A DNA stretch of 20,211 bases from Promethearchaeota archaeon (GCA_048938005.1 JBHLMQ010000056.1:1-20211), one strand, 5' to 3'; counted from the stretch's first letter, positions 1,332 through 14,489 are shown. Program-made: numbers and translations. The notes: generated by a model from the sequence alone, not told the origin.

Positions 1332-2177
1332 ATGAATATATGGATTATGGAATCAGATAGTGGTATTACTCTTGTCTACAAGCCGTACATGGATTTTCCT
1401 GTAAATGAAGACTTAGTATCGGGACTTTTGACAGCACTTAATCAATTTACTATTGTAGAATTCAAACAGGGTATAGAATCTATTGAGATGGGGGGTTTAA
1501 GGTGGGTTTACATACAGGATAAAGATACAAATCTTTTATTTATAGGGGCAGATTCTAAAGATGTAAAAGCGGATATATTAAGAGCACGTCTAGATGTGAT
1601 ACGTCAGACTTTTATTCAACAATATCATAATGAAAAAAATCGTTGGGGTAGTAAATGGGCTGGAAATGTTGAAATTTATAAACCTTTTGAACAAGTTATT
1701 GATGAGTTCTATACTCAATGGAAACAAGCAGAGCGTATAACTACAGTAGCTGAATTTTTTGATATTTTAGGAATATTTCAACAAATATTAAATTTAGTTA
1801 TCAATGTAATAGAAGGCCATTTAGATGAAAAGAAAAAGGAGATTATGTATGATAGAGTTGAAGAAATGTTTAAAAACTATTCAAATCTCGAGATTGTTCA
1901 AGATAATCCTGAATTGAGTAAAATCACATTTGTAAGAAATGTAGGATTTAATGTCATTAGTATAGATCCTATGAACAGTGATATGTACCTTGTCGAAAAG
2001 CAAATAATAAACTTGATTCGTCGAATTGTTGAAATTCTTAAACAAGAAGAAGGGTATTTTCCAAGTTTAAAATATTTTATTAAAGAGAATATCTTTGATT
2101 ATTTATTGTCAAACTTTAACCTCTTAAATGATTTAAACTTATTCACATTTTTACTGCAACTTTTTTTAATTAAATGA
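1332..2177 (+). CDS. Longin-domain protein with helical C-terminal region
   Basis: N-terminal ~120 aa match the Asgard longin pattern: IWIMESDSGITLVYK, EDLVSGLLTALNQF, IESIEMGG, LLFIG, LDVIRQTFIQQY. Confidence 0.75.
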   Translation: MNIWIMESDSGITLVYKPYMDFPVNEDLVSGLLTALNQFTIVEFKQGIESIEMGGLRWVYIQDKDTNLLFIGADSKDVKADILRARLDVIRQTFIQQYHNEKNRWGSKWAGNVEIYKPFEQVIDEFYTQWKQAERITTVAEFFDILGIFQQILNLVINVIEGHLDEKKKEIMYDRVEEMFKNYSNLEIVQDNPELSKITFVRNVGFNVISIDPMNSDMYLVEKQIINLIRRIVEILKQEEGYFPSLKYFIKENIFDYLLSNFNLLNDLNLFTFLLQLFLIK

Positions 2178-2350
2178 TTTAATTTCAATTTATTCATTAT
2201 TGTTAAGGATTTATTGGTATATTTCGATGATATCATTGAAATATGCGATGTAATCCTTATAAAAGTAAAATGGACTTATTTTAAATAGATTTATTAAAAG
2301 CTGATTATTTAAGTTATTTATTGACCTCAAATAACTAAATTCGTAAGATA

Positions 2351-3661
2351 ATGGAACCCATTCTGCTTATAATAATTTTTATTTTATTCATCGTAATTAT
2401 TTTGAGTTATTCGAAATCTGGTCTTGATTTTGTTGCTATTTCTTTAATCTGTTGTTTTATTGCTGCTACAATTACTGGATTAGTGAAGGGTATCGGTATT
2501 AATACTTTTATTTTATCCATTGAATGGGAAGCGATTATTATTATATTAAGTATGAGTATTATAACAAAAATAGCCCAAGATTCAAATATTTTAGAGTTTG
2601 TAGCAGTGAAACTTTTCAAATTTTCACGTGGTGAACAAAGAATTTTTTTTTGGTACCTCTGTATTATTACTACCCTTTTAGCTGCGATAATTAGCGATGT
2701 TGTTGTAGTTTTAATTTTGGCCCCTATTGTGATAAGGCTTTGTCATTTTCTAAAAATTAGAGCTGGAACGTATCTTTTGGGAATGACTATTTGCATTAAT
2801 ATAGGCTCAATACTAACTCCGTTCTCAAGTGGAGAAAATATTATTATTTCTACTGCAATTACTGCAGCAGGGATTGCAAAGCTAGATACACTTTATTTTA
2901 TTCAGTATTATTGGGGATTTTCATTCTTTTTATTATTTGCGACGATTTTTTTAATAGACAGATTTGTTTTGAGAAAAGAGCCAAAAATTGAAGATCTTCA
3001 AAAAAAATATGTTATAGACTTAATAAACACAGATATTATGGTAAAAAATAAGAAAATGTTTTACTTCAATAGTATTGCAATAATAATAACAATTATTTTA
3101 TTTGCTGTTCTTCCGTTATTATATTTAACAGCCGCCATTTCCGCATTAATTCTTGTATTAGTGAACAGAAGTTATACAAAAAAGCCAATGAGCGAACTTT
3201 TAAAAGATATTGAATGGGAAATTATATTTTTTTTTATAAGTTTATACGTCGTTATAGAGTGCCTTTTGCAAGCAGGATTTCAAGATTTAATTACACAAAT
3301 TCCGTTCGAAATGTTCAATCCTTTTTTAATATCGTTTTTCTTACTTATAGTAGTAAGTTTCATCTCAGGAGTAGTCGCTAACACACCAACAGCATTGATC
3401 TTCATTCCAATAGTACAAACTCTAGCTAATAATTTCGGATCAGTTCCTTTGCTTTTTTCTTTCATAATTGGTATCAATATTGGAGGTAATTTCATTCCTC
3501 AAGGTGCCGCTTGTGATATGATGACTTTAAAAATAGCTCGAGATTCAGGTGTTGAAAATATGAGTTATAAACGTCTATTAAAGATGGGTGGTGCTTTTGC
3601 CTTAATTCATCTTGGATTTTCAATAATATTTTTATTAATTCTAGTACCGATTTTTGGATAA
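2351..3661 (+). CDS. ArsB/NhaD/SLC13 (CitMHS, P-protein-like) ion-transporter superfamily permease
   Basis: 436 aa, about 12 hydrophobic segments, internal repeat (IEWEAIIII / IEWEIIFFF), loops NIGSILTP..ENIII and NIGGNFIPQGA. Confidence 0.85.
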   Translation: MEPILLIIIFILFIVIILSYSKSGLDFVAISLICCFIAATITGLVKGIGINTFILSIEWEAIIIILSMSIITKIAQDSNILEFVAVKLFKFSRGEQRIFFWYLCIITTLLAAIISDVVVVLILAPIVIRLCHFLKIRAGTYLLGMTICINIGSILTPFSSGENIIISTAITAAGIAKLDTLYFIQYYWGFSFFLLFATIFLIDRFVLRKEPKIEDLQKKYVIDLINTDIMVKNKKMFYFNSIAIIITIILFAVLPLLYLTAAISALILVLVNRSYTKKPMSELLKDIEWEIIFFFISLYVVIECLLQAGFQDLITQIPFEMFNPFLISFFLLIVVSFISGVVANTPTALIFIPIVQTLANNFGSVPLLFSFIIGINIGGNFIPQGAACDMMTLKIARDSGVENMSYKRLLKMGGAFALIHLGFSIIFLLILVPIFG

Positions 3662-3874: not shown

Positions 3875-4038
3875 CGAAGAGAGTTCATTTTTTAACAATT
3901 TCCCCCGCACATTATACGGTATTTAATATTATAACCGAACTTTCTTCGATATGTTTAAATATTATTTATTACATATATCATATTAGAGAAAACAAATTAA
4001 TTTAAAATTAATGAAAAGGTAAAAATGAACCTTATTCA
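3875..4038 (+). promoter_or_regulatory. Phased array of 13-bp palindromic operators plus TATA box upstream of the Cys/His-Lrp gene
   Basis: CGAAGAGAGTTCA 3875-3887, degenerate CGCACATTATACG 3906-3918, CGAACTTTCTTCG 3936-3948, TTTAAATA 3954-3961, TGAACCTTATTCA 4026-4038. Confidence 0.65.
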
Positions 4039-4077
4039 GATTTATAAGAAATTTGAATTTCAATTAATATAGACGAG

Positions 4078-4671
4078 TTGATTGTGATGGTAACCTGTCC
4101 GAAATGTGGAGAAGAGTACTCATTAGGTAGAAAAATTTATCACAGCTGTGAAGGGTTTTCAATAGAACACGGTGTTATTTTTAATGACGATCGTGTAAAT
4201 CGTCCTTGGAATTGTCATTCAATGGATGAAGTCGATAAAAGAATTTTAAATATATTACAAAAAAATGACAAAATTTCATATCGAGAGTTAGCAGAAAAGT
4301 TGAAATTAGCAGCAAGCACAATTCATAATAGAGTAAAAAAGATGATTGAAGAGGAAATAATAAAACAATTTGGAGCTATAGTAGATCCAGTGAAAATTGG
4401 CTATAATACTATAGCTATAGTAGGGCTCTCAGTTGATCCAACAAAAATGAATAAAATTGCAGAGAAAATAGCATCATATAATGAAACTCAACTTGTAGCG
4501 ATATCATCTGGAGATCATGATATTATAGCTCAGATCATCGCTAAGGACGAAAAGACACTCTGGAACTTTATAAATATAAAAATCAAGACAATAAATGGAA
4601 TAAAACCTCAAATTCATGTATCTAACTTTTTAGATATATATAAATCAACGCAATCAATAAAAATTGTATAG
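4078..4671 (+). CDS. Lrp/AsnC transcriptional regulator with N-terminal Cys/His (putative metal-binding) domain; ATG at 4087 is the likelier start
   Basis: DEVDKRILNILQKNDKISYRELA..LAASTIHNRV HTH, VDPVKIGY linker, SSGDHD RAM domain. N-terminal CPKC..HSC..WNC. Confidence 0.9.
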   Translation: MIVMVTCPKCGEEYSLGRKIYHSCEGFSIEHGVIFNDDRVNRPWNCHSMDEVDKRILNILQKNDKISYRELAEKLKLAASTIHNRVKKMIEEEIIKQFGAIVDPVKIGYNTIAIVGLSVDPTKMNKIAEKIASYNETQLVAISSGDHDIIAQIIAKDEKTLWNFINIKIKTINGIKPQIHVSNFLDIYKSTQSIKIV

Positions 4672-4696
4672 CAATACTTCTATTTTTTCTTCCCAT

Positions 4697-5158
4697 TTAT
4701 TCATCATCAAATTGTTTTACAATTGTAAACCAAAAATTCACTATTGAATTAATAATTCTATAAAAATCCTTCATTTCTAAAGGTTTGATTACATAACAAT
4801 TAGCATGGAGATTGTAAGCTTTTATTAAATCTTCTTTTGCATCTGATACTGTTAAGATTACCACGGGAATCCGTTTTATTTTATCATCATGCTTGAGTTC
4901 TTTTAGTACCTCAAATCCATTCATCTTTGGTAAATTTAAATCTAAAATGATTAGGTTAGGGGGTTTGGCATTAGAGAATTTTCCTCTCCTCTTTAAAAAA
5001 TCAATAGCTTCAACGCCATCCCTAACAATATCTAAAGTACTGACAATTTTATTCTCTTTAAGAACTTGCTTAGTAAGTTGAATGTCTGCAGCATTATCTT
5101 CTACGAGTAAGATGTGAGCCTTAATTCTTGTATATTCATTTACCATAATATATACCAC
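4697..5158 (-). CDS. Single-domain response regulator, Rcp1/RcpA type; start may be ATG at 5146
   Basis: LLVEDNAAD, DGVEAIDFL, phosphoacceptor IILDLNLPK, VVILT, ANCYVIKP, FWF tail. Abuts the kinase stop (TAGTG overlap). Confidence 0.92.
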   Translation of the reverse strand: MVYIMVNEYTRIKAHILLVEDNAADIQLTKQVLKENKIVSTLDIVRDGVEAIDFLKRRGKFSNAKPPNLIILDLNLPKMNGFEVLKELKHDDKIKRIPVVILTVSDAKEDLIKAYNLHANCYVIKPLEMKDFYRIINSIVNFWFTIVKQFDDE

Positions 5159-6225
5159 TAGTCTTTAATTTTTTCTGGAAAAATTGTAAAGAAGAAGGTT
5201 GATCCTTTCCCAATTTCTGATTCTACCCATATTTTTCCACCATATCGTTGAACTATCTTTTTACATATAGGTAATCCTATCCCTGTACCTGGATATTCTT
5301 CTTTAGTATGTAGCCGGTAAAAAATGTTAAAAAGCTTACCAAAATAGTCTGATTCAATACCTATACCATTATCTTTTACAGAGAATAACCACTTATTATT
5401 AGTTTTGGTTACCCCTATATGTATTCTAGGTGTTTCTTGCTTTCGGAATTTTATGGCATTACTAAGTAAATTCTGAAATAATTGTATAAATTGAGATTTA
5501 TCTACTTTTAATATTGGCATTTCATCATAAGTTATAATTGCACCACTTTCTTTTATTGATTCATGTAAATTAAACAGGGCATCCTGTAAAATAACCTCAA
5601 GGTTAGTTAATTTAGGAGGTTGAGCGTGTGTTGTGATTCTTGAATATGATAATAAATCTTTTATAAGGGTATTCATTTTTTTTGCTCCGTCTGTTATAAA
5701 GTGTATAAATTCTTTACCATCCTTATCAATTTTATCTTGATATTTATCTTCTAGAAGTTGAGAAAAGCTTACAATTGCTCGTAAAGGTTCTTGCAGATCG
5801 TGTGATGCTACATAAGCAAATTGCTGTAAATCTTCGTTAGAGCGTCTTAAATCCTCCATAATTTCATTAAATTCAATTTCTCTTTTTGAAATATGCTCAG
5901 ATAGGAATGATACTACTATTCCAACAATAATTAATGAAATACCTCTCAGAAAATTATTTATTGTCTCTAGATTAAAAATCCCATAATCCTGAATGATATG
6001 AAAAAGTATTAATATTACAGCTAAAAAAGCAGGAACAATTAAACCTGTCTTTTTCCACCAGAGACTTGCCAAAATTGAAGGGAAATAGAAAAAATGCGCC
6101 ACTAGGATAGAAGTTTTAAATATTAACTCGAAATAATAAATTAATAAACACGAGAGGATAATTAATATTAAAATAATCACAATTCTTATTCTTTCTTCTT
6201 TAAATTTCGAATTCATTACAATCAT
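5158..6225 (-). CDS. Membrane-bound sensor histidine kinase with Cph1/bacteriophytochrome-type kinase core but no photosensory module
   Basis: About four N-terminal TM segments, H-box LQQFAYVASHDLQEPLR, N-box QNLLSNAIKF, G1 DNGIGI, G2 GTGIGL, GKGSTF. Confidence 0.93.
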   Translation of the reverse strand: MIVMNSKFKEERIRIVIILILIILSCLLIYYFELIFKTSILVAHFFYFPSILASLWWKKTGLIVPAFLAVILILFHIIQDYGIFNLETINNFLRGISLIIVGIVVSFLSEHISKREIEFNEIMEDLRRSNEDLQQFAYVASHDLQEPLRAIVSFSQLLEDKYQDKIDKDGKEFIHFITDGAKKMNTLIKDLLSYSRITTHAQPPKLTNLEVILQDALFNLHESIKESGAIITYDEMPILKVDKSQFIQLFQNLLSNAIKFRKQETPRIHIGVTKTNNKWLFSVKDNGIGIESDYFGKLFNIFYRLHTKEEYPGTGIGLPICKKIVQRYGGKIWVESEIGKGSTFFFTIFPEKIKD

Positions 6226-6447
6226 TTCTCTTATTTTATTATATATTCATTAATTTGATTTTTTTTTAAAATTGAGAAAAAATCATGGGAAATATTCTTT
6301 ATTAATAAAAATATTGTCCAATGGAAAATAAATTTTATCGAACAAAAATATTATAACTTCTAATTCAGAAAATGAGATTTCAGTTTAAAATTTACAATCA
6401 AAATTATTCTTTCTAAATTATAAATAAAATAATTATTTATATTAAAA

Positions 6448-6460
6448 TGAATATTATTCA
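6448..6460. promoter_or_regulatory. YGAA-N5-TTCR palindrome in the divergent kinase / REC-Lrp intergenic region
   Basis: TGAATATTATTCA. Confidence 0.5.
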
Positions 6461-6534
6461 GAATAAGAGAAATTAAGATGAAAAAGATTTTAATTTTAAA
6501 AAAATGCATAAAAAGTATTTTCAGGTGAATAAAA

Positions 6535-7419
6535 ATAGAGGATAAAAAACTCAATCTACTATTAATTGAAGATAATACTGCTGATGTGCGTCTTATTGAA
6601 GAATTATTAAAAACTTCCGCAGAATTCAAATTTGATTTAAAATCATATCCTAGACTATCTGAAAGTTTGAATAGTCTTAAAACTAGAAGCTTTGATATTA
6701 TTATATTAGATTTAACTTTGCCAGATAGCGATAGAGAGACTACTTTAGAAAGAGTTTTAAGTGTGATAGACACAATACCTATAATTATTTTAACTGGGTT
6801 GGATGATAAGGAATTTGCATTGCAATCTCTTCAAAAAGGAGCACAAGATTATATGGTAAAAAGTGAGCTTAATGGACCAAGTTTAACACGGGCGATCTTG
6901 TATGCTATTGAACGGCACAGAATTGAAAGTGAAAAGTTAATGGGAAAGGTTATAAAAATACCACTTGATAAAAAAGATAAAGAAATCCTTAATCTACTAC
7001 AAAATAATTATAGAATCTCTTATAAGGAATTAAGTAAAAAAGTGAATCTTGCCGCTAGTACTATACATAATCGAGTACAAAATATGATAAAAGAAGGAAT
7101 CATAAAAAAATTTGATACTCTCGTAGATCCACTTAAAATCGGATTTGAATCTATAGCCATTCTTGGTCTCTCTGTTGATCCATTGAGATTGGACGATATA
7201 GCAAAAAAACTAGCCATTTATGATGAGATACAATTAGTTACATCCTCAACTGGAGACCATAATTTATTAATAAAAATTATTGCGAAAGATGAGAAAAATC
7301 TCTGGAGATTTATTAATGAAGAACTTAAAACACTAGATGGAATTCAACTACCAATACATGTGTCAAGTTTTATAGATATTTTTAAAATGACTCATAAGAT
7401 TAATTTTAGAATTGAATAA
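6535..7419 (+). CDS. Response regulator with Lrp/AsnC DNA-binding output (REC-Lrp fusion); true start is upstream of the track's GTG 6586, probably ATA at 6535
   Basis: In-frame upstream codons give EDKKLNLLLIEDNTAD (REC beta1 and acidic pocket). IILDLTLPD, ILTG, GAQDYMVK follow, then a full Lrp domain (LAASTIHNRV, VDPLKIGF, STGDHN). AGGTGA at 6523-6528. Confidence 0.88.
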   Translation: MEDKKLNLLLIEDNTADVRLIEELLKTSAEFKFDLKSYPRLSESLNSLKTRSFDIIILDLTLPDSDRETTLERVLSVIDTIPIIILTGLDDKEFALQSLQKGAQDYMVKSELNGPSLTRAILYAIERHRIESEKLMGKVIKIPLDKKDKEILNLLQNNYRISYKELSKKVNLAASTIHNRVQNMIKEGIIKKFDTLVDPLKIGFESIAILGLSVDPLRLDDIAKKLAIYDEIQLVTSSTGDHNLLIKIIAKDEKNLWRFINEELKTLDGIQLPIHVSSFIDIFKMTHKINFRIE

Positions 7420-7421
7420 AA

Positions 7422-7442
7422 AGGATAAATTATTTTTATCCT
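7422..7442. terminator. Short hairpin directly after the REC-Lrp stop, between convergent genes
   Basis: AGGATAAA-TTATT-TTTATCCT, a perfect 8-bp stem. Confidence 0.35.
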
Positions 7443-7650
7443 ATGAGATCTCTGTTTCTAGATATATTTTCTTCCTTTCTATACTAAATCTTGCACATTT
7501 TTCTCAGCAGTAGGTTTAACAGGTCTTATAAATTATATTCTTCCATCTCTGGTTTATAGATTGATTAATATTTTGTAGGATAATTATTAATTATATCGCT
7601 TGCCGACTCTTACATTTTTTGTTTTAATAAAGAATTGCTTAAAAAATAAT

Positions 7651-8988
7651 TTAAGGGAAAATTCCTCTCAACTCAATTGCTCTGGCTAATCTTGAAATAG
7701 CAATAATATATGCGGCTATTCGAAGAGTAATATTCTTTTCTTTTGATAGATTATAAACTTCCTCAAATGAACTTACAAGAATATTTTTTAACTCTTGGTT
7801 AATTCTATCTAATTTCCAAAAATAACTATGAATATCTTGAATATACTCAAAATAAGAGACACATAAGCCTCCAGCATTAGCAAGAATATCAGGGACTATT
7901 ATTATCTCCTTTTTTTTCAAAATATTATCGGCTTCTGGAGTAGTTGGTCCATTAGCACCTTCTAATATAATTTTACAATTAATTTTAAAAGCATTTGATT
8001 GGGTTATTTGGTTTTCTACTGCTGCTGGGATTAAAATGTCACATTTAAGCGTTAATAAATCTTCATTAGTGATAAATTTATAATTTTTATTTTGAAAATC
8101 TTTGAAATAGTTATTCCTATCTCTCCATTCTAATAACTCTTTAATATTTAAGCCTCCTTCGGCATATAAACCTCCGGTAATATCCGACACAGCAATAATC
8201 TTACAACCTTTTTCATATAAAATATTAGCAATATGTCCCCCAACATTGCCAAATCCTTGAATTACAATATTCTGGGTTCTTAGATCTATATCTATTTTAT
8301 TGCATAAAGCTTCGAGAACAAAAAATAAACCCATCCCTGTTGCCGTTTCTCTCCCAACTGAACCTCCTATTTCTAATGGTTTCCCCGTCACTACTCCAGG
8401 AATAGCTCTCCCTTTATGCATAGAATAGGTGTCCATAACCCAAGCCATAATTTGCGGACCTGTATTAATATCTGGAGCAGGAATATCCATATCCGGTCCA
8501 ATAATATTTATGATTTCTGTTGTATATCTCCTAGTTAGCCTTTCTAATTCCTCTTTTGATAATTTTTTTGGATCTACACATACACCTCCTTTTGCTCCTC
8601 CAAGAGGTAATCCCAATAAGCTGCTTTTCCAAGTCATCCAAGTAGCTAGTGCTTTAACTTCATCAAGATTAACATTTGGTGCAAATCTAATACCTCCCTT
8701 GCCAGGACCCCGAATAGTTGAATGTTGTACTCTGTAACCTTCAAAAATCTCTAAATCTCCATCATCCATCTTAATTGGAATTGAAACAATTAAAGAACGT
8801 TCTACTCTTTTGAGATATTTCCTAATATTATTACTTAATCCAATTTTTTCGGCAACAATATCGATTTGCTTTTTTGCCATTTCAAATAGGTTTGTCTCAA
8901 TTAAAATTTCTTTCTCTACAATTCCAGAAACATCAATTTGATCAGGTGTAACAAGTGTTATTTGATCCTTTTTTTTATTTTCTAGCAT
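7651..8988 (-). CDS. gdhA: Glutamate dehydrogenase (Glu/Leu/Phe/Val family), paralog 1 with ~30-aa N-terminal extension
   Basis: GPGKGGIRF, MTWK, GGAKGG, PAPD, TGKP, QGFGNVG, EGANGP, NAGG.CVSYFE. Confidence 0.93.
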   Translation of the reverse strand: MLENKKKDQITLVTPDQIDVSGIVEKEILIETNLFEMAKKQIDIVAEKIGLSNNIRKYLKRVERSLIVSIPIKMDDGDLEIFEGYRVQHSTIRGPGKGGIRFAPNVNLDEVKALATWMTWKSSLLGLPLGGAKGGVCVDPKKLSKEELERLTRRYTTEIINIIGPDMDIPAPDINTGPQIMAWVMDTYSMHKGRAIPGVVTGKPLEIGGSVGRETATGMGLFFVLEALCNKIDIDLRTQNIVIQGFGNVGGHIANILYEKGCKIIAVSDITGGLYAEGGLNIKELLEWRDRNNYFKDFQNKNYKFITNEDLLTLKCDILIPAAVENQITQSNAFKINCKIILEGANGPTTPEADNILKKKEIIIVPDILANAGGLCVSYFEYIQDIHSYFWKLDRINQELKNILVSSFEEVYNLSKEKNITLRIAAYIIAISRLARAIELRGIFP

Positions 8989-8991
8989 TTC

Positions 8992-9155
8992 CGAATAGAA
9001 TTCAGTTTTGATTTTTTCATTTTAATTGATTAGATTATATCTCTTCATCTTATATATGTTGTATAATATTTATAAATTTGCCGAATTTTATCCTAGCATT
9101 ATGCTCTCAAAGCGAAAACATTTCGAACAATAAAAAATCAGATGACTTTCATTCG
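8992..9155 (-). promoter_or_regulatory. Phased array of 13-bp palindromic operators plus TATA box upstream of gdh paralog 1
   Basis: TGACTTTCATTCG 9143-9155, CGAAAACATTTCG 9113-9125, degenerate CGAATTTTATCCT 9082-9094, TTTATAAA 9069-9076, CGAATAGAATTCA 8992-9004. Confidence 0.65.
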
Positions 9156-9403: not shown

Positions 9404-10654
9404 TCATAACCATCCTCTCAACTTCATAGCTTCTATAACTCGGTCAATAGCTATTATATAAGCTCCCATTCTGTTATGTGTTTCGTATTTTTTAGATTGT
9501 TCTACAGTAGAACGGTAAGCTCTTGTCATAACTCTATCTAATGCTTCAAACACCTCTTTTTCGGTCCAAAAATAACGGTAATAACCTTGAACCATTTCGA
9601 AGTATGAGACTGTAACTCCTCCTGCATTGCATAAAAAATCAGGAATAACATCAATGCCTTTCTCAAAAAGGATTTTATCTGCATCTGGAGTTGTAGGACC
9701 ATTGGCAAGTTCAGCAATGATCTTACAATTAATATTGTTTGCGTTTTTATTAGTGATAACATTTTCAAGAGCGGCTGGAACTAATACATCACATTCTAAT
9801 TCTAATAATTCTTCATTTGAAATTTCATCAGTTCCTTTTAAACCAACCACCGATCGTGTTTTCTCTTTAAATTCTGCTGCTACCCAGGGATCAATTCCAT
9901 CTTTATTAAAAATGCCACCTTTCGAATCAGAAACTGCAATTATTTTACAATTAAAGTCATCTTTTAATAGTTTTGCTGCCCATGATCCAGCATTTCCATA
10001 TCCTTGAATTACTGCTGTTGCCCCATTTAAGTTTAAACCAACATCTTTAGCTGCCTCCCTAATACAATAAACACCACCTTTAGCTGTAGAAATTGATCTA
10101 CCTGCACTACCACCTAATGGTAAAGGTTTTCCAGTGATAACGGAGGGTGCATGATGACGTACTATGCGTTCATACTCATCTTGCATCCAAGCCATGATTT
10201 GCGGATTTGTATAAACATCTGGAGCTGGAACATCAATATTAGGGCCAATAAAATCAGCAAGTTGTCTAATATAGCTTCTTGCCAGAATTTCAAGTTCTCG
10301 ATTACTCATAGTTCTTGGATCACATATTATTCCACCTTTTGCTCCTCCTAGAGGAATATCAACACAAGCTGTTTTCCAAGTCATCCAAGCACTTAAAGCT
10401 TTTACAAGAGAAGCGCTTTCATCTGGGTGCCATCTAATTCCTCCTTTCATAGGACCTCGAGCAGAATTATATTGAGATCTAAAGCCTTTAAACGTCTTTA
10501 AAGACCCATCGTCCATTTTCATTGTAATTTTTATCACTATAAACCTCTCGGGTTCACTCAGAGCGTTGTAAACCTCAAAATCGGTATCACTGATCTTACA
10601 AGCGTCAGAAAGTTGTTTCTGAGAAATTTTGAAAGGGTCTAAAATTTCACTCAT
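9404..10654 (-). CDS. gdhA: Glutamate dehydrogenase, paralog 2 (resembles Thermococcales-type GDH)
   Basis: GPMKGGIRWHP, MTWK, GGAKGG, PAPDVYT, QGYGNAG, AVSDSKGG, NAGGVTVSYFE. Confidence 0.95.
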   Translation of the reverse strand: MSEILDPFKISQKQLSDACKISDTDFEVYNALSEPERFIVIKITMKMDDGSLKTFKGFRSQYNSARGPMKGGIRWHPDESASLVKALSAWMTWKTACVDIPLGGAKGGIICDPRTMSNRELEILARSYIRQLADFIGPNIDVPAPDVYTNPQIMAWMQDEYERIVRHHAPSVITGKPLPLGGSAGRSISTAKGGVYCIREAAKDVGLNLNGATAVIQGYGNAGSWAAKLLKDDFNCKIIAVSDSKGGIFNKDGIDPWVAAEFKEKTRSVVGLKGTDEISNEELLELECDVLVPAALENVITNKNANNINCKIIAELANGPTTPDADKILFEKGIDVIPDFLCNAGGVTVSYFEMVQGYYRYFWTEKEVFEALDRVMTRAYRSTVEQSKKYETHNRMGAYIIAIDRVIEAMKLRGWL

Positions 10655-10706: not shown

Positions 10707-10721
10707 TTGAATTTTTTTCAA
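10707..10721. promoter_or_regulatory. YGAA-N5-TTCR palindrome upstream of gdh paralog 2
   Basis: TTGAATTTTTTTCAA, about 53 nt before the ATG at 10654. Confidence 0.5.
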
Positions 10722-10870: not shown

Positions 10871-13603
10871 TCATTTCTCAATGTGGGCAAATTTGTTTTT
10901 TAAATATTCATGAATAGCTTTTGCTGCTCGTTTTCCTGACCCCATTGCCGAAATCACAGTAGCAGAACCCGAAACTATATCTCCCCCCGCATAAACTCCT
11001 TCTATATTGGTTCTACTATTTTCATCAGTTTCGAGATATCCCCATTTAGTTAGTTTTAAGTCAGGAATTGATTTAGTTAAAATAGGATTAGCAGTAGTAC
11101 CAATACCTAATAATACAGTGTCAGTTTCAATGAAAAATTCAGAATTTTCAATTGGTATGGGTCTTCTCCTTCCTGAATCATCTGGTTTACCTAAACGCAT
11201 TTTAATAGCTTGAATCTGTTTTACATTATCATTTTCGTCTCCTATAAACCTTAAAGGACTAGATAAGAAATGAAATTCAATTCCTTCTTCTAATGCATGG
11301 TGGTATTCTTCTTTTCTTGCAGGCATTTCTATTTCCGATCTTCTATAAACAACTATCACTTTTTTTGCCCCTAATCGCTTAGCTACTCTGGATGCATCAA
11401 GAGCGGTATTTCCACCACCAATAACAGTTACGATTTCTCCTACTTTAATTGGTGTATCATATTCTGGAAATCTGTAAGCTTTCATTAAATTAGCTCTTGT
11501 GAGGAATTCATTAGCTGTTAAAACCCCATTTAAAGTCAATCCAGGGATTTTAGGAAACATAGGGAGTCCTGCTCCTACTCCGATGAAAAAAGCTTCGAAT
11601 CCCATATCCCTTAAATCTTGAAGAGACAAAATTTTGCCAATAATTTTATTATACTTTACTTTAACATCAAGCATTTTTAATGTTTCAATTTCATCTTTAA
11701 CAATCTCTTTTGGCAATCTGAATTCTGGAATACCATAAGTTAATACACCGCCACCTGCATGGAATGCTTCAAAAATAGTGACATCATACCCTTTTCTGGC
11801 AAGCTCTCCTGCACAAGTTAGTCCTGCGGGTCCTGAACCGATAACAGCAACTTTAATATGATTCGGAGCTTTACACTCTGGGCATTCCTTTAACTGATTT
11901 TCTCGTTCCCAATCAGCAATAAATCTTTCCAAATATCCGATCGCGATTGGTTCTTCTAACTCATTCATTAAACATGTTTCTTCACATTGAACTTCTTGAG
12001 GACAAACTCTTCCACAGATAGCGGGTAATAAATTATAGTCTTTCATCACTCTAAGTGCATCAATGTATTTCTCGTCTCTAAGTAATCTTATAAATCGGGG
12101 GATATCAATATTAACTGGACATCCAGAAACACAGTGAGGAAAACCACATTGTAAACACCTCTTAGATTCCAATTTTACCATTTCTAATGTTAATCCTTTG
12201 GGTACTTCCTGAAAATTAGTAACTCTTATATTTGGATATTGTTCCGGCATTTTTGGCCTTCTTAGCTCCTTATAGAACTTTTCTTTTGATAGACTAACTC
12301 TTTTTAATCTATTAAAACTCTCATCTTCCTCACTTATTTCTTTTGATTCAATTAAGTGAAGATCTAATGCTTTTTGGAATAAATCCGCACCTTTTTTAGT
12401 TCTGATAATGACTGTTGACCAATCTGACTCAGATCCGAGAGAACCAACAGCAATATCTGCTTGTTCGGATGTAAAATCACCACAGAAAAAACATCCTAAT
12501 CTACTATAAGTTTTGAGTTTTTTTACAGGTATAGTATAAATGGAATGATCTTTATGAAAAGCATAAAAGCGTCCTTTATCGATATCCATTTTTTTAATAA
12601 CATTAGGAGATATTTGAAATTCAATTTTTAAAAGATTTTTTATATTTTCATAATCAAATGATTCCATACAGAACAGTCCAATTTTTAAAGCAATATTATC
12701 ATAAAAAGGTTTGTTAAATGGATAGAAACTTATTTTTTTTAAAGCTTCCATCATACAGGGCGTACCAACTATTGCAATATTCTTGTAATCTCTTGAGCTA
12801 TGCAATAATTTCAAAGATGGGGTATTAGTGTATTTTGTACCAGCTGTTCTTAATAATTCCTCTTCATTATCAATTAGGACTGGTAAGGGTTTGTGCGGCT
12901 CATCTGAAACGCTGACAGCTATAGCAGCATCTATGAGTTTTTCTTGGAATGCGGTTTTAAGTAAAGATGTGACAATCCCACCATTTTGAGCCAATGTTTT
13001 AATATTCTCATTAGTAGTTTGAGCAGAATATATGTTATAATAATGGTTTATTTGCTCTGCAAACTTTAAGTCTGCATCCTTACTCTCAATATATTTTTTT
13101 AATATTTTAGGAAAGAATGATCTTGGACAACAAGAAAAGCATAGACCACAATTGAGACAAAGATCTTCATTAATATCAAATGAGCTACTTGTGTAATTGA
13201 TAGCATTTACAGGACAAACTGAATCACATAAACCACACCCACAACATAAATTTTTGTCTCTAATTATTGAAACATTCGGGAATAATCCTTTGTTTTCATT
13301 GGATTCTATAAACTTATGAAAAAATCTTGATTGTTCTCCTAAGAATTCTAATGACCCTAATTCTCTTAGATATTCAATATTATAAATCAGATTTTTTTCG
13401 GGAACATCTAACTCACTATTCAATTTCTGAAGATCTAAAGCCCCAATCTCTTTAATTTTTTTTAGGATTTCCTGTCTTTCTTTTTCAGCTTCCTTTATTG
13501 AATTGATGAATGCATTATATTCACCTTCATTGTATCTAGCCTGTTGTAGAATTCTATCCTTATTTTCTATGAATACCTTAACCAATGGCGTTTGTTCTTC
13601 CAT
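10871..13603 (-). CDS. Fusion protein: helical/wHTH-like N-terminus + 2x[4Fe-4S] + FrhB/FpoF-type F420-binding domain + NfnB/SudA/GltD-type FAD/NADPH oxidoreductase
   Basis: CCGCGLCDSVCP and CLNCGLCFSCCP. FrhB motifs AQNGGIVT, AGTKY, VGTPC, IGLFC, GCFFCGD, ADIAVG. NfnB motifs CLQC..CVSGCP, CGRVCPQE.QCE..C, GSGPAG, GIPEFRLP, GGGNTALD, VYRR, AGGD. ATG at 13603 is preferred to GTG 13618 because AGGTGA lies at 13620-13615. Confidence 0.9.
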   Translation of the reverse strand: MEEQTPLVKVFIENKDRILQQARYNEGEYNAFINSIKEAEKERQEILKKIKEIGALDLQKLNSELDVPEKNLIYNIEYLRELGSLEFLGEQSRFFHKFIESNENKGLFPNVSIIRDKNLCCGCGLCDSVCPVNAINYTSSSFDINEDLCLNCGLCFSCCPRSFFPKILKKYIESKDADLKFAEQINHYYNIYSAQTTNENIKTLAQNGGIVTSLLKTAFQEKLIDAAIAVSVSDEPHKPLPVLIDNEEELLRTAGTKYTNTPSLKLLHSSRDYKNIAIVGTPCMMEALKKISFYPFNKPFYDNIALKIGLFCMESFDYENIKNLLKIEFQISPNVIKKMDIDKGRFYAFHKDHSIYTIPVKKLKTYSRLGCFFCGDFTSEQADIAVGSLGSESDWSTVIIRTKKGADLFQKALDLHLIESKEISEEDESFNRLKRVSLSKEKFYKELRRPKMPEQYPNIRVTNFQEVPKGLTLEMVKLESKRCLQCGFPHCVSGCPVNIDIPRFIRLLRDEKYIDALRVMKDYNLLPAICGRVCPQEVQCEETCLMNELEEPIAIGYLERFIADWERENQLKECPECKAPNHIKVAVIGSGPAGLTCAGELARKGYDVTIFEAFHAGGGVLTYGIPEFRLPKEIVKDEIETLKMLDVKVKYNKIIGKILSLQDLRDMGFEAFFIGVGAGLPMFPKIPGLTLNGVLTANEFLTRANLMKAYRFPEYDTPIKVGEIVTVIGGGNTALDASRVAKRLGAKKVIVVYRRSEIEMPARKEEYHHALEEGIEFHFLSSPLRFIGDENDNVKQIQAIKMRLGKPDDSGRRRPIPIENSEFFIETDTVLLGIGTTANPILTKSIPDLKLTKWGYLETDENSRTNIEGVYAGGDIVSGSATVISAMGSGKRAAKAIHEYLKNKFAHIEK

Positions 13604-13604
13604 C

Positions 13605-14489
13605 TTAAGGTGCTTCACCTTTTGATTTTTCTAATGCTCTACATTCCTGTTCATATTGTTCTAATGATTCTTTCTCTTGATCAAGAAACCTATTAGCACG
13701 ATTTAAAAGATTATCAAAATCAATAATGTGCCCATCTACATCTGGACCATCAACACATGCAAATTGAATTTCTCCAGAATGAGTTGAAAATCGACATCCT
13801 CCACACATCCCTGTGCCATCAATCATTATTGTATTTAAAGATACAAAAGTTTTTACCTTCGGTAATTCCTTATTACCATTTGTCATAATGGAAACATTTT
13901 TCATCATAATCAAAGGTCCAATCGCAATAACAGCACTTATTTTCTCTTTTTTTAATAAATCTTGAAGTGGTTTAGTTACAAATCCTTTTATTCCCTCGCT
14001 TCCATCATCTGTACAAATAATAAATCTGTCACTAACAGCAGCTATTTTATCTTTCCAGAATATTAAATCTTTCGTACGAGCACCAATAATAGAAATAATT
14101 TTGTTTCCTACCCTTTTTAATTCTTTTGCTTGGGGATAACATTCAGCTATTCCAACTCCCCCACCAATAATTATAACAGGAGATTCATATTTTTCAATGT
14201 GAATTCTATTACCTAATGGCCCAACAACATCTAGAATATTGTCACCTACATTTTGATTTGAGAGAAGTTTTGTAGTTTTTCCTACCACTTGAAAGACAAT
14301 CGTTATTACCCCTTGATCTGCATTATAATCCGCTATTGTTAATGGAATTCTTTCTCCTGTTTCATTTATTCTAATGAGTATAAAATTCCCAGCAAATGCC
14401 TTTTTAGCAATTATTGGAGTTTTTAGGTCCATCTCAAATAAAGTCCCACTATTACCTAATTGGATTTTTTTTAGAATTTTGTAGGGCAC
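13605..14489 (-). CDS. nfnA: NfnA/SudB (PyrK-like) FAD/NAD-binding [2Fe-2S] small subunit
   Basis: GERIPLTI, VGKTT, GPLGN, GGGVGIA, TDDGSEG.KG, GPLIMM, DGTGMCGGCR..ACVDGP (Asp + 3 Cys cluster ligands). GTG start; stop is 1 nt from the next ATG. Confidence 0.9.
   Translation of the reverse strand: MPYKILKKIQLGNSGTLFEMDLKTPIIAKKAFAGNFILIRINETGERIPLTIADYNADQGVITIVFQVVGKTTKLLSNQNVGDNILDVVGPLGNRIHIEKYESPVIIIGGGVGIAECYPQAKELKRVGNKIISIIGARTKDLIFWKDKIAAVSDRFIICTDDGSEGIKGFVTKPLQDLLKKEKISAVIAIGPLIMMKNVSIMTNGNKELPKVKTFVSLNTIMIDGTGMCGGCRFSTHSGEIQFACVDGPDVDGHIIDFDNLLNRANRFLDQEKESLEQYEQECRALEKSKGEAP

Follow-up and report, generated by a model that had tools for sequence, protein, structure and literature searches.

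Which protein reads a set of regularly spaced 13-bp palindromes that recurs in front of two genes of one archaeal gene cluster, and what does its binding do to these genes? The question is raised by a 20,211-bp contig of a Promethearchaeota archaeon (GCA_048938005.1, JBHLMQ010000056.1:1-20211; contig C95), which as a whole is referred to as the window; the assembly comprises 3.72 Mb with 30% G+C. One of the two genes encodes an Lrp-type regulator with a Cys/His N-terminal domain (Cys/His-Lrp, called Zn-ribbon-Lrp here) and the other encodes the glutamate dehydrogenase Gdh1; between them lie the genes of a stand-alone receiver, a membrane histidine kinase and a fusion of a receiver with an Lrp module (receiver-Lrp). 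P1, P2 and P3 denote the promoters of the Zn-ribbon-Lrp, gdh1 and receiver-Lrp genes, respectively. The answer that we consider probable, with some reserve, is that P1 and P2 carry a conserved cis-regulatory module of an Asgard family, namely arrays of the type bound by the Pyrococcus regulator FL11, which would be occupied by the Lrp proteins of the cluster, with receiver-Lrp as the first candidate, in the form of an octamer-like clamp.

The site array at P1 and P2

A sequence-only reading of the window had reported eight 13-bp sites of the YGAA-N5-TTCR type, four in front of each gene, with steps toward the gene of 31/30/90 bp in P1 and 30/31/90 bp in P2, and two TATA boxes that begin 5 bp past the third site and continue into TATTAT. 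Every position and sequence was verified (Table 1), including the count of five perfect sites out of eight, with two mismatches each in the sites at 3906 and 9082 and one in the site at 9143. P1 and P2 can be aligned without gaps over their common part, where sites 1, 3 and 4 and the TATA box fall into the same columns, with a shift of one column for site 2. The array follows a lattice of about 30 bp, with sites on positions 0, 1, 2 and 5, the fourth-site distance of 90 bp being equal to 3 × 30 bp.

The window contains 10 perfect matches to the site, compared to 2.42 expected, and none of 100 shuffles reached 10. Genome-wide, 375 perfect matches were counted (about 1 per 10 kb), and the N5 spacer was not in excess over the spacers N0–N12; since N5 is not preferred across these matches, YGAA-N5-TTCR is not a genome-wide word. 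The genome holds just five clusters of at least two sites within 130 bp, P1 and P2 being two of the five. A search of the 3.72-Mb genome for the architecture (a site with at most two mismatches, 5 bp, TTTAWWWW and a perfect site 84–107 bp downstream) returned P1 and P2 as the sole matches. The distance histogram of site pairs showed no 30-bp periodicity genome-wide, and a genome regulon search, using a position weight matrix and spaced pairs, found no array beyond P1 and P2; the other inspected pairs at 30, 31, 61, 90, 121 or 151 bp are taken as chance, because all of them lie within coding frames.

Both promoters contain a conserved CATATAT followed by an AGAGA block, 36–56 bp past the start of site 3. 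The corresponding blocks, 3972–3992 and 9038–9058, probably represent a promoter-proximal element and the initiator, given their canonical distance from the TATA box, and transcription is predicted to start near 3985 in P1 and near 9045 in P2, within the 90-bp gap before site 4. In a survey of TATA positions, TATA-like words peak at 30–40 nt and at 60–100 nt before start codons; by this measure P2 has an ordinary leader and P1 a long one, which is mute on function. The genome-wide profile of the TFB recognition element (BRE) and the TATA context is noisy.

Table 1. Sites, promoter elements and genes of the regulatory cluster, in window coordinates.
Feature	Coordinates	Strand	Sequence	Remarks
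P1 site 1	3875–3887		CGAAGAGAGTTCA	perfect
P1 site 2	3906–3918		CGCACATTATACG	2 mismatches, half-sites YGYAY instead of YGAAY
P1 site 3	3936–3948		CGAACTTTCTTCG	perfect, abuts BRE/TATA region
P1 TATA box	3954–3961	+	TTTAAATA	
P1 conserved block	3972–3992	+	CATATATCATATTAGAGAAAA	mean conservation 0.83 vs 0.67 for the rest
P1 site 4	4026–4038		TGAACCTTATTCA	90 bp past site 3
P2 site 1	9143–9155		TGACTTTCATTCG	1 mismatch in window
P2 site 2	9113–9125		CGAAAACATTTCG	perfect
P2 site 3	9082–9094		CGAATTTTATCCT	2 mismatches; gene-ward reading AGGATAAAATTCG
P2 TATA box	9069–9076	-	TTTATAAA	
P2 conserved block	9038–9058	-	CATATATAAGATGAAGAGATA	mean conservation 0.92
P2 site 4	8992–9004		CGAATAGAATTCA	3 bp before gdh1 ATG
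P3 site	6448–6460		TGAATATTATTCA	TGAAT[ATT]ATTCA, upstream of receiver-Lrp gene
Lone perfect site	10708–10720		TGAATTTTTTTCA	54 bp upstream of gdh2
Zn-ribbon-Lrp gene	4087–4671	+		Cys/His N-terminal domain, HTH_AsnC, RAM; Pfam
Stand-alone receiver (REC) protein	4697–5158	-		Pfam; kept in cluster of relatives
Membrane histidine kinase	5158–6225	-		Pfam HisKA, HATPase_c; kept in cluster of relatives
Receiver-Lrp fusion	6535–7419	+		REC, HTH_AsnC, RAM; Pfam, translation
gdh1, glutamate dehydrogenase	7651–8988	-		Pfam, NCBIfam
gdh2	9404–10654	-		

Conservation in close relatives

A search with the Zn-ribbon-Lrp protein retrieved 28 loci from records labelled as Asgard archaeal metagenome-assembled genomes (MAGs) of Promethearchaeota, Hodarchaeota and Hermodarchaeota, and every sufficiently long locus has the gene order Zn-ribbon-Lrp, receiver, kinase, receiver-Lrp, gdh1. 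Twenty-four of 26 P1 promoters (one cut by a contig end and one N-masked were left out) and 16 P2 promoters were judged. In P1, site 4 is perfect in all 24 promoters, site 3 in 23 and site 1 in 20; the gap between site 3 and the TATA box is 5 bp throughout (24/24), and sites 3 and 4 lie 90 bp apart in 20 promoters, 91 bp in three and 89 bp in one. The deviating site 2 of P1 is itself maintained, with A8, A10, T14 and C16 kept in 23–24 of 24 promoters and a third half-site base other than A; it is a conserved weak or alternative site. In P2, site 4 is perfect in 16/16 promoters, site 2 in 14/16 and site 1 in 11/16; site 3 is perfect in none of the 16, and all of them retain the TTC of its TATA-proximal TTCG half, the AGGA-like distal half being degenerate throughout but conserved as well.

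When the promoters were anchored on site 3 and conservation was measured as the mean top-base frequency per column, the specified columns of the sites scored 0.75–0.99 and those of the TATA box 0.96–0.99 (means of 0.99 for the 24 P1 promoters and 0.96 for P2), and all other columns scored 0.67–0.71. The N5 centres are conserved no better than the linkers, which have diverged freely around the fixed sites. The sequence-only reading had made its case depend on conservation, and the sites, their spacing and the TATA box are indeed kept in relatives within one Asgard family while the flanks drift.

These data bear directly on whether the likeness of P1 and P2 has any function at all, as it might be a remnant of duplication or a product of chance in A/T-rich DNA. 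The genome has a G+C content of only 30%, GAA and TTC are common words, and no genome-wide excess of the N5 spacer exists, but the half-sites and their spacing persist over a range of receiver-Lrp identity of 53–100%, in which linkers and N5 centres have diverged, and the architecture is matched just twice in the whole genome. Judged from these alignments, the functionless reading is already contradicted by the conservation pattern, and we consider it exceedingly improbable.

Distant relatives and the age of the array

In the 400 genomes searched from the phylum, receiver-Lrp had about 55 full-length matches, all in the window's own family, and 20 distant loci were retrieved, with receiver-Lrp identities of 53–68%. 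The kinase, receiver, receiver-Lrp and gdh1 genes stay together in these loci, and the Zn ribbon is encoded by a stand-alone gene, its match being limited to residues 1–54 of the fusion; stand-alone Zn-ribbon genes are likewise present in the loci L026, L027 and L030. In G001 and G002, the two genomes of this kind that were searched with the Zn-ribbon-Lrp protein, the fusion was not found; the sole close Lrp in each is receiver-Lrp, the other Lrps showing at most 33% identity.

The array is present in such relatives. Locus L079 contains four perfect sites with 30/30/90-bp steps and the 5-bp gap to the TATA box, located before a stand-alone Zn-ribbon gene, and the sites before gdh1 are spaced 31/90 bp in L078 and 30/90 bp in L081. 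Pooling of the close and distant loci yielded 55 distinct instances of the architecture, with 84–107 bp allowed between sites 3 and 4; this distance is 90 bp in 41 instances, 91 bp in 7, 102–103 bp in 3, and 89, 92, 85 and 87 bp in one each. The genes downstream encode a Zn-ribbon or Zn-ribbon-Lrp protein (30 instances), Gdh1 (17), a GltA-like protein (1) or a small open reading frame (ORF) of 84–109 amino acids (3); four others are unassigned and appear false. As the same array precedes the stand-alone Zn-ribbon gene and gdh1 in relatives lacking the fusion, comparison of these loci indicates that the array predates the Zn-ribbon-Lrp fusion.

Several features of these loci can be added. In L016, the array stands before a homolog of the GltA-like gene, and the small ORF (conserved ...FYQHL..SNFPFDA...) lies behind the same array in L017 (1094–2686), L018 (about 1800–3010), L043 (6395–7917), L080 and L091; in L017 and L043 it is divergent from a TauE/SafE-type permease. 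Judging from these loci, membership of the regulon appears to differ among relatives. The Cys/His N-terminal part of Zn-ribbon-Lrp (window 4087–4230; CPKCGEEYS...HSCEG...WNC) is a separate small Zn-ribbon-like domain, which stands alone as a protein of 75–86 amino acids in distant relatives (L026, 3194–3451; L030, 5692–5919) and is tandem-duplicated in L028 (about 5900–6700); its fusion to an Lrp module was seen solely in the window's lineage.

Candidate binding proteins

The best matches of the local Lrp module among solved structures are PH0140, FL11 (PH1519) and LrpA of Pyrococcus. Archaeal Lrp operators are described as 13- to 17-bp imperfect inverted repeats with an A/T-rich centre, clustered at centre-to-centre distances of two or three helical turns (PMC2995911), and the arrays of the window combine this palindrome form and A/T-rich centres with 30/31-bp steps and a putative cognate Lrp carrying the matching reading residues. 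For FL11, the study by Yokoyama et al. (2009, PMC2715240) gives CCGAAA[AAT/ATT]TTTCGG as the optimum from in vitro selection (SELEX) and TGAAA-WWW-TTTCA as the natural consensus; the half-site of the local motif is the core of this SELEX optimum. In the contact code of the same source, base a (C or T) falls to Ala34 and Thr37, G at position b to Ser36, position c to His39 and positions d and e to Leu24.

In the alignment with FL11, the two local Lrps show Ala34, Ser36, Thr37 and His39, together with Tyr24 and Ala35, so that four of the six FL11 contacts (Leu24, Ala34, Glu35, Ser36, Thr37, His39) are present. This combination of residues fits a YGA(A) half-site with a relaxed fifth base, as is seen in the sites. 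Fifteen of the 20 HTH_AsnC matches of the genome were translated and inspected; the Ala34/Ser36/Thr37/His39 set was present in both Lrps of the cluster and in none of the other 13. The two local Lrp modules are 52% identical and have the reading helix LAASTIHNRV in common, which is unchanged in the receiver-Lrp of 19 of the 20 distant loci. Going by these residues, the local module would work like FL11 without being its ortholog, and the most likely occupants of the sites are dimers of Lrp-type proteins from the same cluster.

A binder of another kind, whether the Zn-ribbon protein or an unlinked regulator, for example a nitrogen repressor resembling NrpR, appears very unlikely. Wherever the array occurs, the Zn-ribbon gene is present as well, gdh belongs to nitrogen metabolism and the NrpR operator, GGAA-N6-TTCC, is superficially similar, but the motif, its A/T-rich centre and the 30–31-bp phasing fit the Lrp contact code, and DNA binding by the Zn ribbon is unsupported, its domain having no match in Pfam or NCBIfam. 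NrpR was rejected as the binder, as the genome (95% completeness) yielded no PF01995 match with a search that recovered matches in control genomes, and the spacer is N5, not N6.

The sequence-only reading had taken the arrays as the DNA-wrapping site of the local Lrp oligomer, with autoregulation. The Lrp operator form and the FL11-like residues of the local proteins speak for Lrp operators; an autoregulating oligomer of Zn-ribbon-Lrp is not supported in this form, as the array occurs in genomes without the fusion. The idea that Zn-ribbon-Lrp is the regulator, with its oligomer wrapping both promoters and controlling its own gene, has points in its favour: its base-reading residues are the same as those of receiver-Lrp, P1 is its own promoter, the canonical sites 1 and 2 of gdh1 are missing in the fusion-free loci L026 and L027, and it retains the ligand-loop Asp in the place of which receiver-Lrp mostly has Asn. 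However, fusion-free genomes carry full arrays before stand-alone Zn-ribbon genes and gdh1, hence Zn-ribbon-Lrp cannot be the ancestral or the sole binder, and the idea is considered unlikely. Receiver-Lrp is the more probable primary binder, because the array predates the fusion and receiver-Lrp is the sole close Lrp in G001 and G002; it occurs in every relative and adjoins the histidine kinase and the stand-alone receiver. The Zn-ribbon-Lrp paralog, with identical base-reading residues, probably shares the sites in the window's lineage.

The canonical receiver consensus consists of an acidic pair, a phospho-acceptor Asp, a Thr and a Lys. All of these are present in the receiver of receiver-Lrp, which has the motifs IEDN, ILDLTLPD, ILTG and MVK and a Response_reg match in Pfam; with these pocket residues and an adjacent HisKA/HATPase_c kinase, the protein can be classed by sequence as a two-component response regulator. 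The ligand loop of the RAM part shows GDHD in all 22 Zn-ribbon-Lrp sequences (about 4510–4525 in the window) and GD(H/Y)N in 32 of 38 receiver-Lrp sequences (7300–7330). In PH0140, the equivalent loop residue, Asp111, is described as holding the amino group of the ligand. The loop sequences suggest that receiver-Lrp may have lost classical amino-acid binding, and they hint at a division in which an amino acid is sensed by the fusion paralog and the kinase by receiver-Lrp.

Comparison with known regulators

FL11 of Pyrococcus OT3/horikoshii (PH1519), a feast/famine regulatory protein whose complex with DNA has been solved (PDB 2E1C), resembles the local system in that its 13-bp palindrome has YGAA half-sites around an A/T-rich centre, in the four reading residues Ala34, Ser36, Thr37 and His39, and in the binding of four sites, which is described for its own and the lysine-synthesis promoters. 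The local regulators differ from FL11 in having a receiver or Zn-ribbon domain at the N-terminus, and the local half-sites have Y or a variable base in fifth place instead of A; the layout consists of three sites and one at 90 bp, and the regulon is local instead of global. Phmmer comparison of the local Lrps with the FL11 chains gave E-values of only 5e-24 to 7e-24. For the helical cylinder of FL11, the available text (PMC8157908) gives no number of dimers per turn. The best solved-structure match to the local module is PH0140 (DARP/FL5) of Pyrococcus horikoshii (E-value 1.3e-26), described as an octamer of four dimers with an amino-acid ligand at the dimer–dimer interface. In contrast to the local proteins, its reading helix is PESTVRARV, its targets belong to a racemase cluster, and it has neither a receiver nor a Zn ribbon.

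The middle box of Ss-LrpB, a regulator of Sulfolobus solfataricus, is the weaker one, as is site 2 of P1. The control region of the Ss-LrpB gene contains three regularly spaced palindromic boxes upstream of the regulator gene, in likeness to the local arrays, and the cooperative binding of three dimers, DNA wrapping and the regulation of neighbouring metabolic genes have been described (PMC2995911, PMC4046817). The Ss-LrpB consensus, TTGCAAAATTTGCAA, and its reading residue, Arg39, differ from the local ones, the available descriptions contain no fourth site downstream of the start, and the protein has no receiver domain. FilR1 of Methanothrix harundinacea and LtrR of Methanococcoides burtonii combine, as in the window, a kinase with a response regulator having a helix-turn-helix (HTH) output (PMC5847659). 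Their outputs are winged HTH-DUF1724 or plain HTH, located N-terminally to the receiver, whereas the local receiver is N-terminal to a complete Lrp (HTH_AsnC and RAM); the available part of that source describes no operator array for either regulator.

Proposed mechanism and the sign of regulation

Archaeal Lrps are known to bind palindromes as dimers, cooperatively, bending or wrapping the DNA, and to repress, activate or do both (PMC2995911, PMC4046817), and the FL11 octamer represses its own promoter (PMC13628549). Since the known proteins bind, space and wrap their sites in this manner, and given the self-repression by the FL11 octamer, the four sites per promoter, of the form YGAAY-WWW-RTTCR, are read as sites for four dimers of one assembly. 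Three dimers would bind cooperatively upstream of the BRE/TATA region, abutting it, and the fourth at about +45; an octamer-like assembly of dimers would bend or loop the core promoter in the 90-bp gap, and full occupancy would shut off, or switch, the transcription of gdh1 and the Zn-ribbon gene. The signal in this mechanism would be phosphorylation of the receiver by the kinase and/or an amino-acid effector. Judging by the receiver residues and the gene neighbourhood, it is probably phosphorylation by the adjacent kinase, and the sensor kinase may thus act directly on the expression of glutamate dehydrogenase.

Repression at full occupancy is favoured, because site 4 is fixed downstream, additional sites are found in L084 and L085, and the P3 site lies inside the core promoter. 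A serious rival, which we nevertheless regard as doubtful, retains the same proteins and sites and reverses the sign: the upstream triplet would activate through recruitment of TBP/TFB, in the style of Ptr2, LysM or Ss-LrpB at low level, and the +45 site would only modulate. All three upstream sites are located 5' of the TATA box, activators and dual regulators are on record among the archaeal Lrps (PMC2995911, PMC4046817), and induction of gdh1 by amino acids is plausible. On the other hand, three features are typical of repression, i.e., a fourth site that follows the predicted start, at the fixed distance of 90 bp, the further perfect site that covers the predicted start in L084 and L085, and the location of the P3 site within the core promoter.

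Several observations weigh against the clamp of four FL11-like dimers. The distance of 90 bp corresponds to 8.6 turns at 10.5 bp per turn, the conservation columns of the orthologs show no recognisable site at lattice positions 3 and 4, and three instances have 102–103 bp instead of 90 bp, so that the data do not call for a continuous wrap. A triplet upstream of the TATA box is how archaeal activators are usually laid out, and so the sign of regulation could be opposite. Each array includes one conserved non-canonical site (P1 site 2, P2 site 3), which a single-protein model does not explain, and the local Lrps deviate from FL11 at two contacts, with Tyr24 for Leu24 and Ala35 for Glu35. Moreover, the genome has no further arrays that could serve for an independent motif test, and the relatives are kin, so the conservation counts overstate independence.

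A more elaborate version of the clamp can be proposed tentatively, and we would give it less credence than the general one. It supposes a lattice of six positions about 30 bp apart, the two empty ones holding the TATA box and the start, where a phospho-controlled octamer or short filament of receiver-Lrp would clamp the promoter; the Zn-ribbon paralog would share the operators, integrating kinase and amino-acid signals, possibly in mixed oligomers.

The receiver-Lrp promoter and lone sites

The single site of P3 is located directly past a conserved TATA-like A/T block (about 6419–6447). In 21 of 23 close promoters its sequence is TGAATATTATTCA, and the other two have CGAATATTATTCA, which begins with C; of the 20 distant loci, 15 have a perfect site in front of the receiver-Lrp gene. 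Strict autoregulation is better assigned to this near-invariant site at 6448 in the receiver-Lrp promoter. The intergenic region between the kinase and receiver-Lrp genes also contains, in most relatives, a conserved CGAACAAAAATAT with a single CGAA half-site (6339–6351), about 109 bp upstream of the P3 site.

The lone perfect site at 10708 is a possible member of the module, with a weak case; the region upstream of gdh2 in L002 has an N6-spaced look-alike instead of the N5 site. A further perfect match, at 4149–4161 in the Zn-ribbon coding region, is not counted as an operator, because its conservation is explained by the peptide sequence: it encodes C-E-G-F-S with preferred A/T-ending codons. 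The pattern scan also matched L035, a MAG labelled Heimdallarchaeota, which was rejected because it carries a different 15-bp palindrome and looks like a different system; the region 4100–4300 of L035 contains two identical copies of TGAACACTGTTCA, flanked by G...C and located 67 bp apart around a TATA-like box. The six bacterial matches of the scan were dismissed as chance.

Gene starts and neighbouring genes

The start codon of gdh1, ATG at 8988, is kept in close relatives, and the distant gdh1 genes have an apparent start at ATA after GGTGA or GGGGAG. For Zn-ribbon-Lrp, the start is more likely to be ATG at 4087 or TTG at 4078; at the position of the former, orthologs show ATA, ATC or TTG, preceded by a conserved GAGTTGAT. 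The probable start of receiver-Lrp is ATA at 6535 after GGTGA, not the listed GTG at 6586: from the stop at 6526 to the receiver domain, none of the codons ATG, GTG and TTG occurs in the frame, and the orthologs in L002–L025 have ATG, ATA or ATC at this position, 7–9 nt past the conserved GGTGA. Both Lrp regulator genes thus seem to use weak start codons. A 137-amino-acid ORF on the minus strand (6360–6773) matches no family and extends across both the promoter and the start of the receiver-Lrp gene; it is unlikely to be a real gene. The DUF4118 match of the kinase (5158–6225) is weak and falls under the Pfam cut-off.

Farther along the window, a fusion protein has a C-terminal half that scores above the NCBIfam cut-off for the NADPH-dependent glutamate synthase GltA, and a homolog of oligopeptidase F is likewise encoded. 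The region 10871–14489 contains the gene of a 915-amino-acid fusion with ferredoxin-like, FrhB-like and GltA-type NADPH oxidoreductase parts, which overlaps by 14 nt the gene of a 294-amino-acid protein with a DHOD-B-type Fe-S domain. The two gdh paralogs and the adjoining genes of this region look like a glutamate/redox metabolism island.

Significance

Control of transcription in Asgard archaea is almost unstudied. The cis-elements described here would be of a known kind, as, by analogy, they work like the operators of FL11 and Ss-LrpB; what is unusual is the receiver-Lrp architecture, the predicted DNA-binding response regulator in an archaeon and the fixed geometry of three sites plus one. 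The combination of REC, HTH_AsnC and RAM is very rare, as it was found in just one other cluster at 50% identity among the best 150 matches from 1.84 billion representative proteins. A titles-level search of the literature did not find a prior description of the receiver-Lrp/array system. Archaeal two-component systems are reported to act mainly by protein–protein contacts, DNA-binding response regulators being rare (PMC5847659), and the available text of this census does not mention a receiver-Lrp fusion.

The cassette represents a complete testable circuit, consisting of a membrane kinase, receiver-Lrp and defined operators of fixed geometry, with a small predicted regulon that includes glutamate dehydrogenase, the Zn-ribbon protein and the regulator itself and, in relatives, the small ORF and the GltA-like oxidoreductase. 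The fixed arrangement of three sites plus one makes the clamping of a promoter by an Lrp assembly testable. If the more elaborate, tentative version of the clamp is true, a complete Lrp placed under a two-component kinase through its fusion to a receiver would provide Asgard archaea with a direct route from phosphorylation to DNA, of a kind barely known in archaea.

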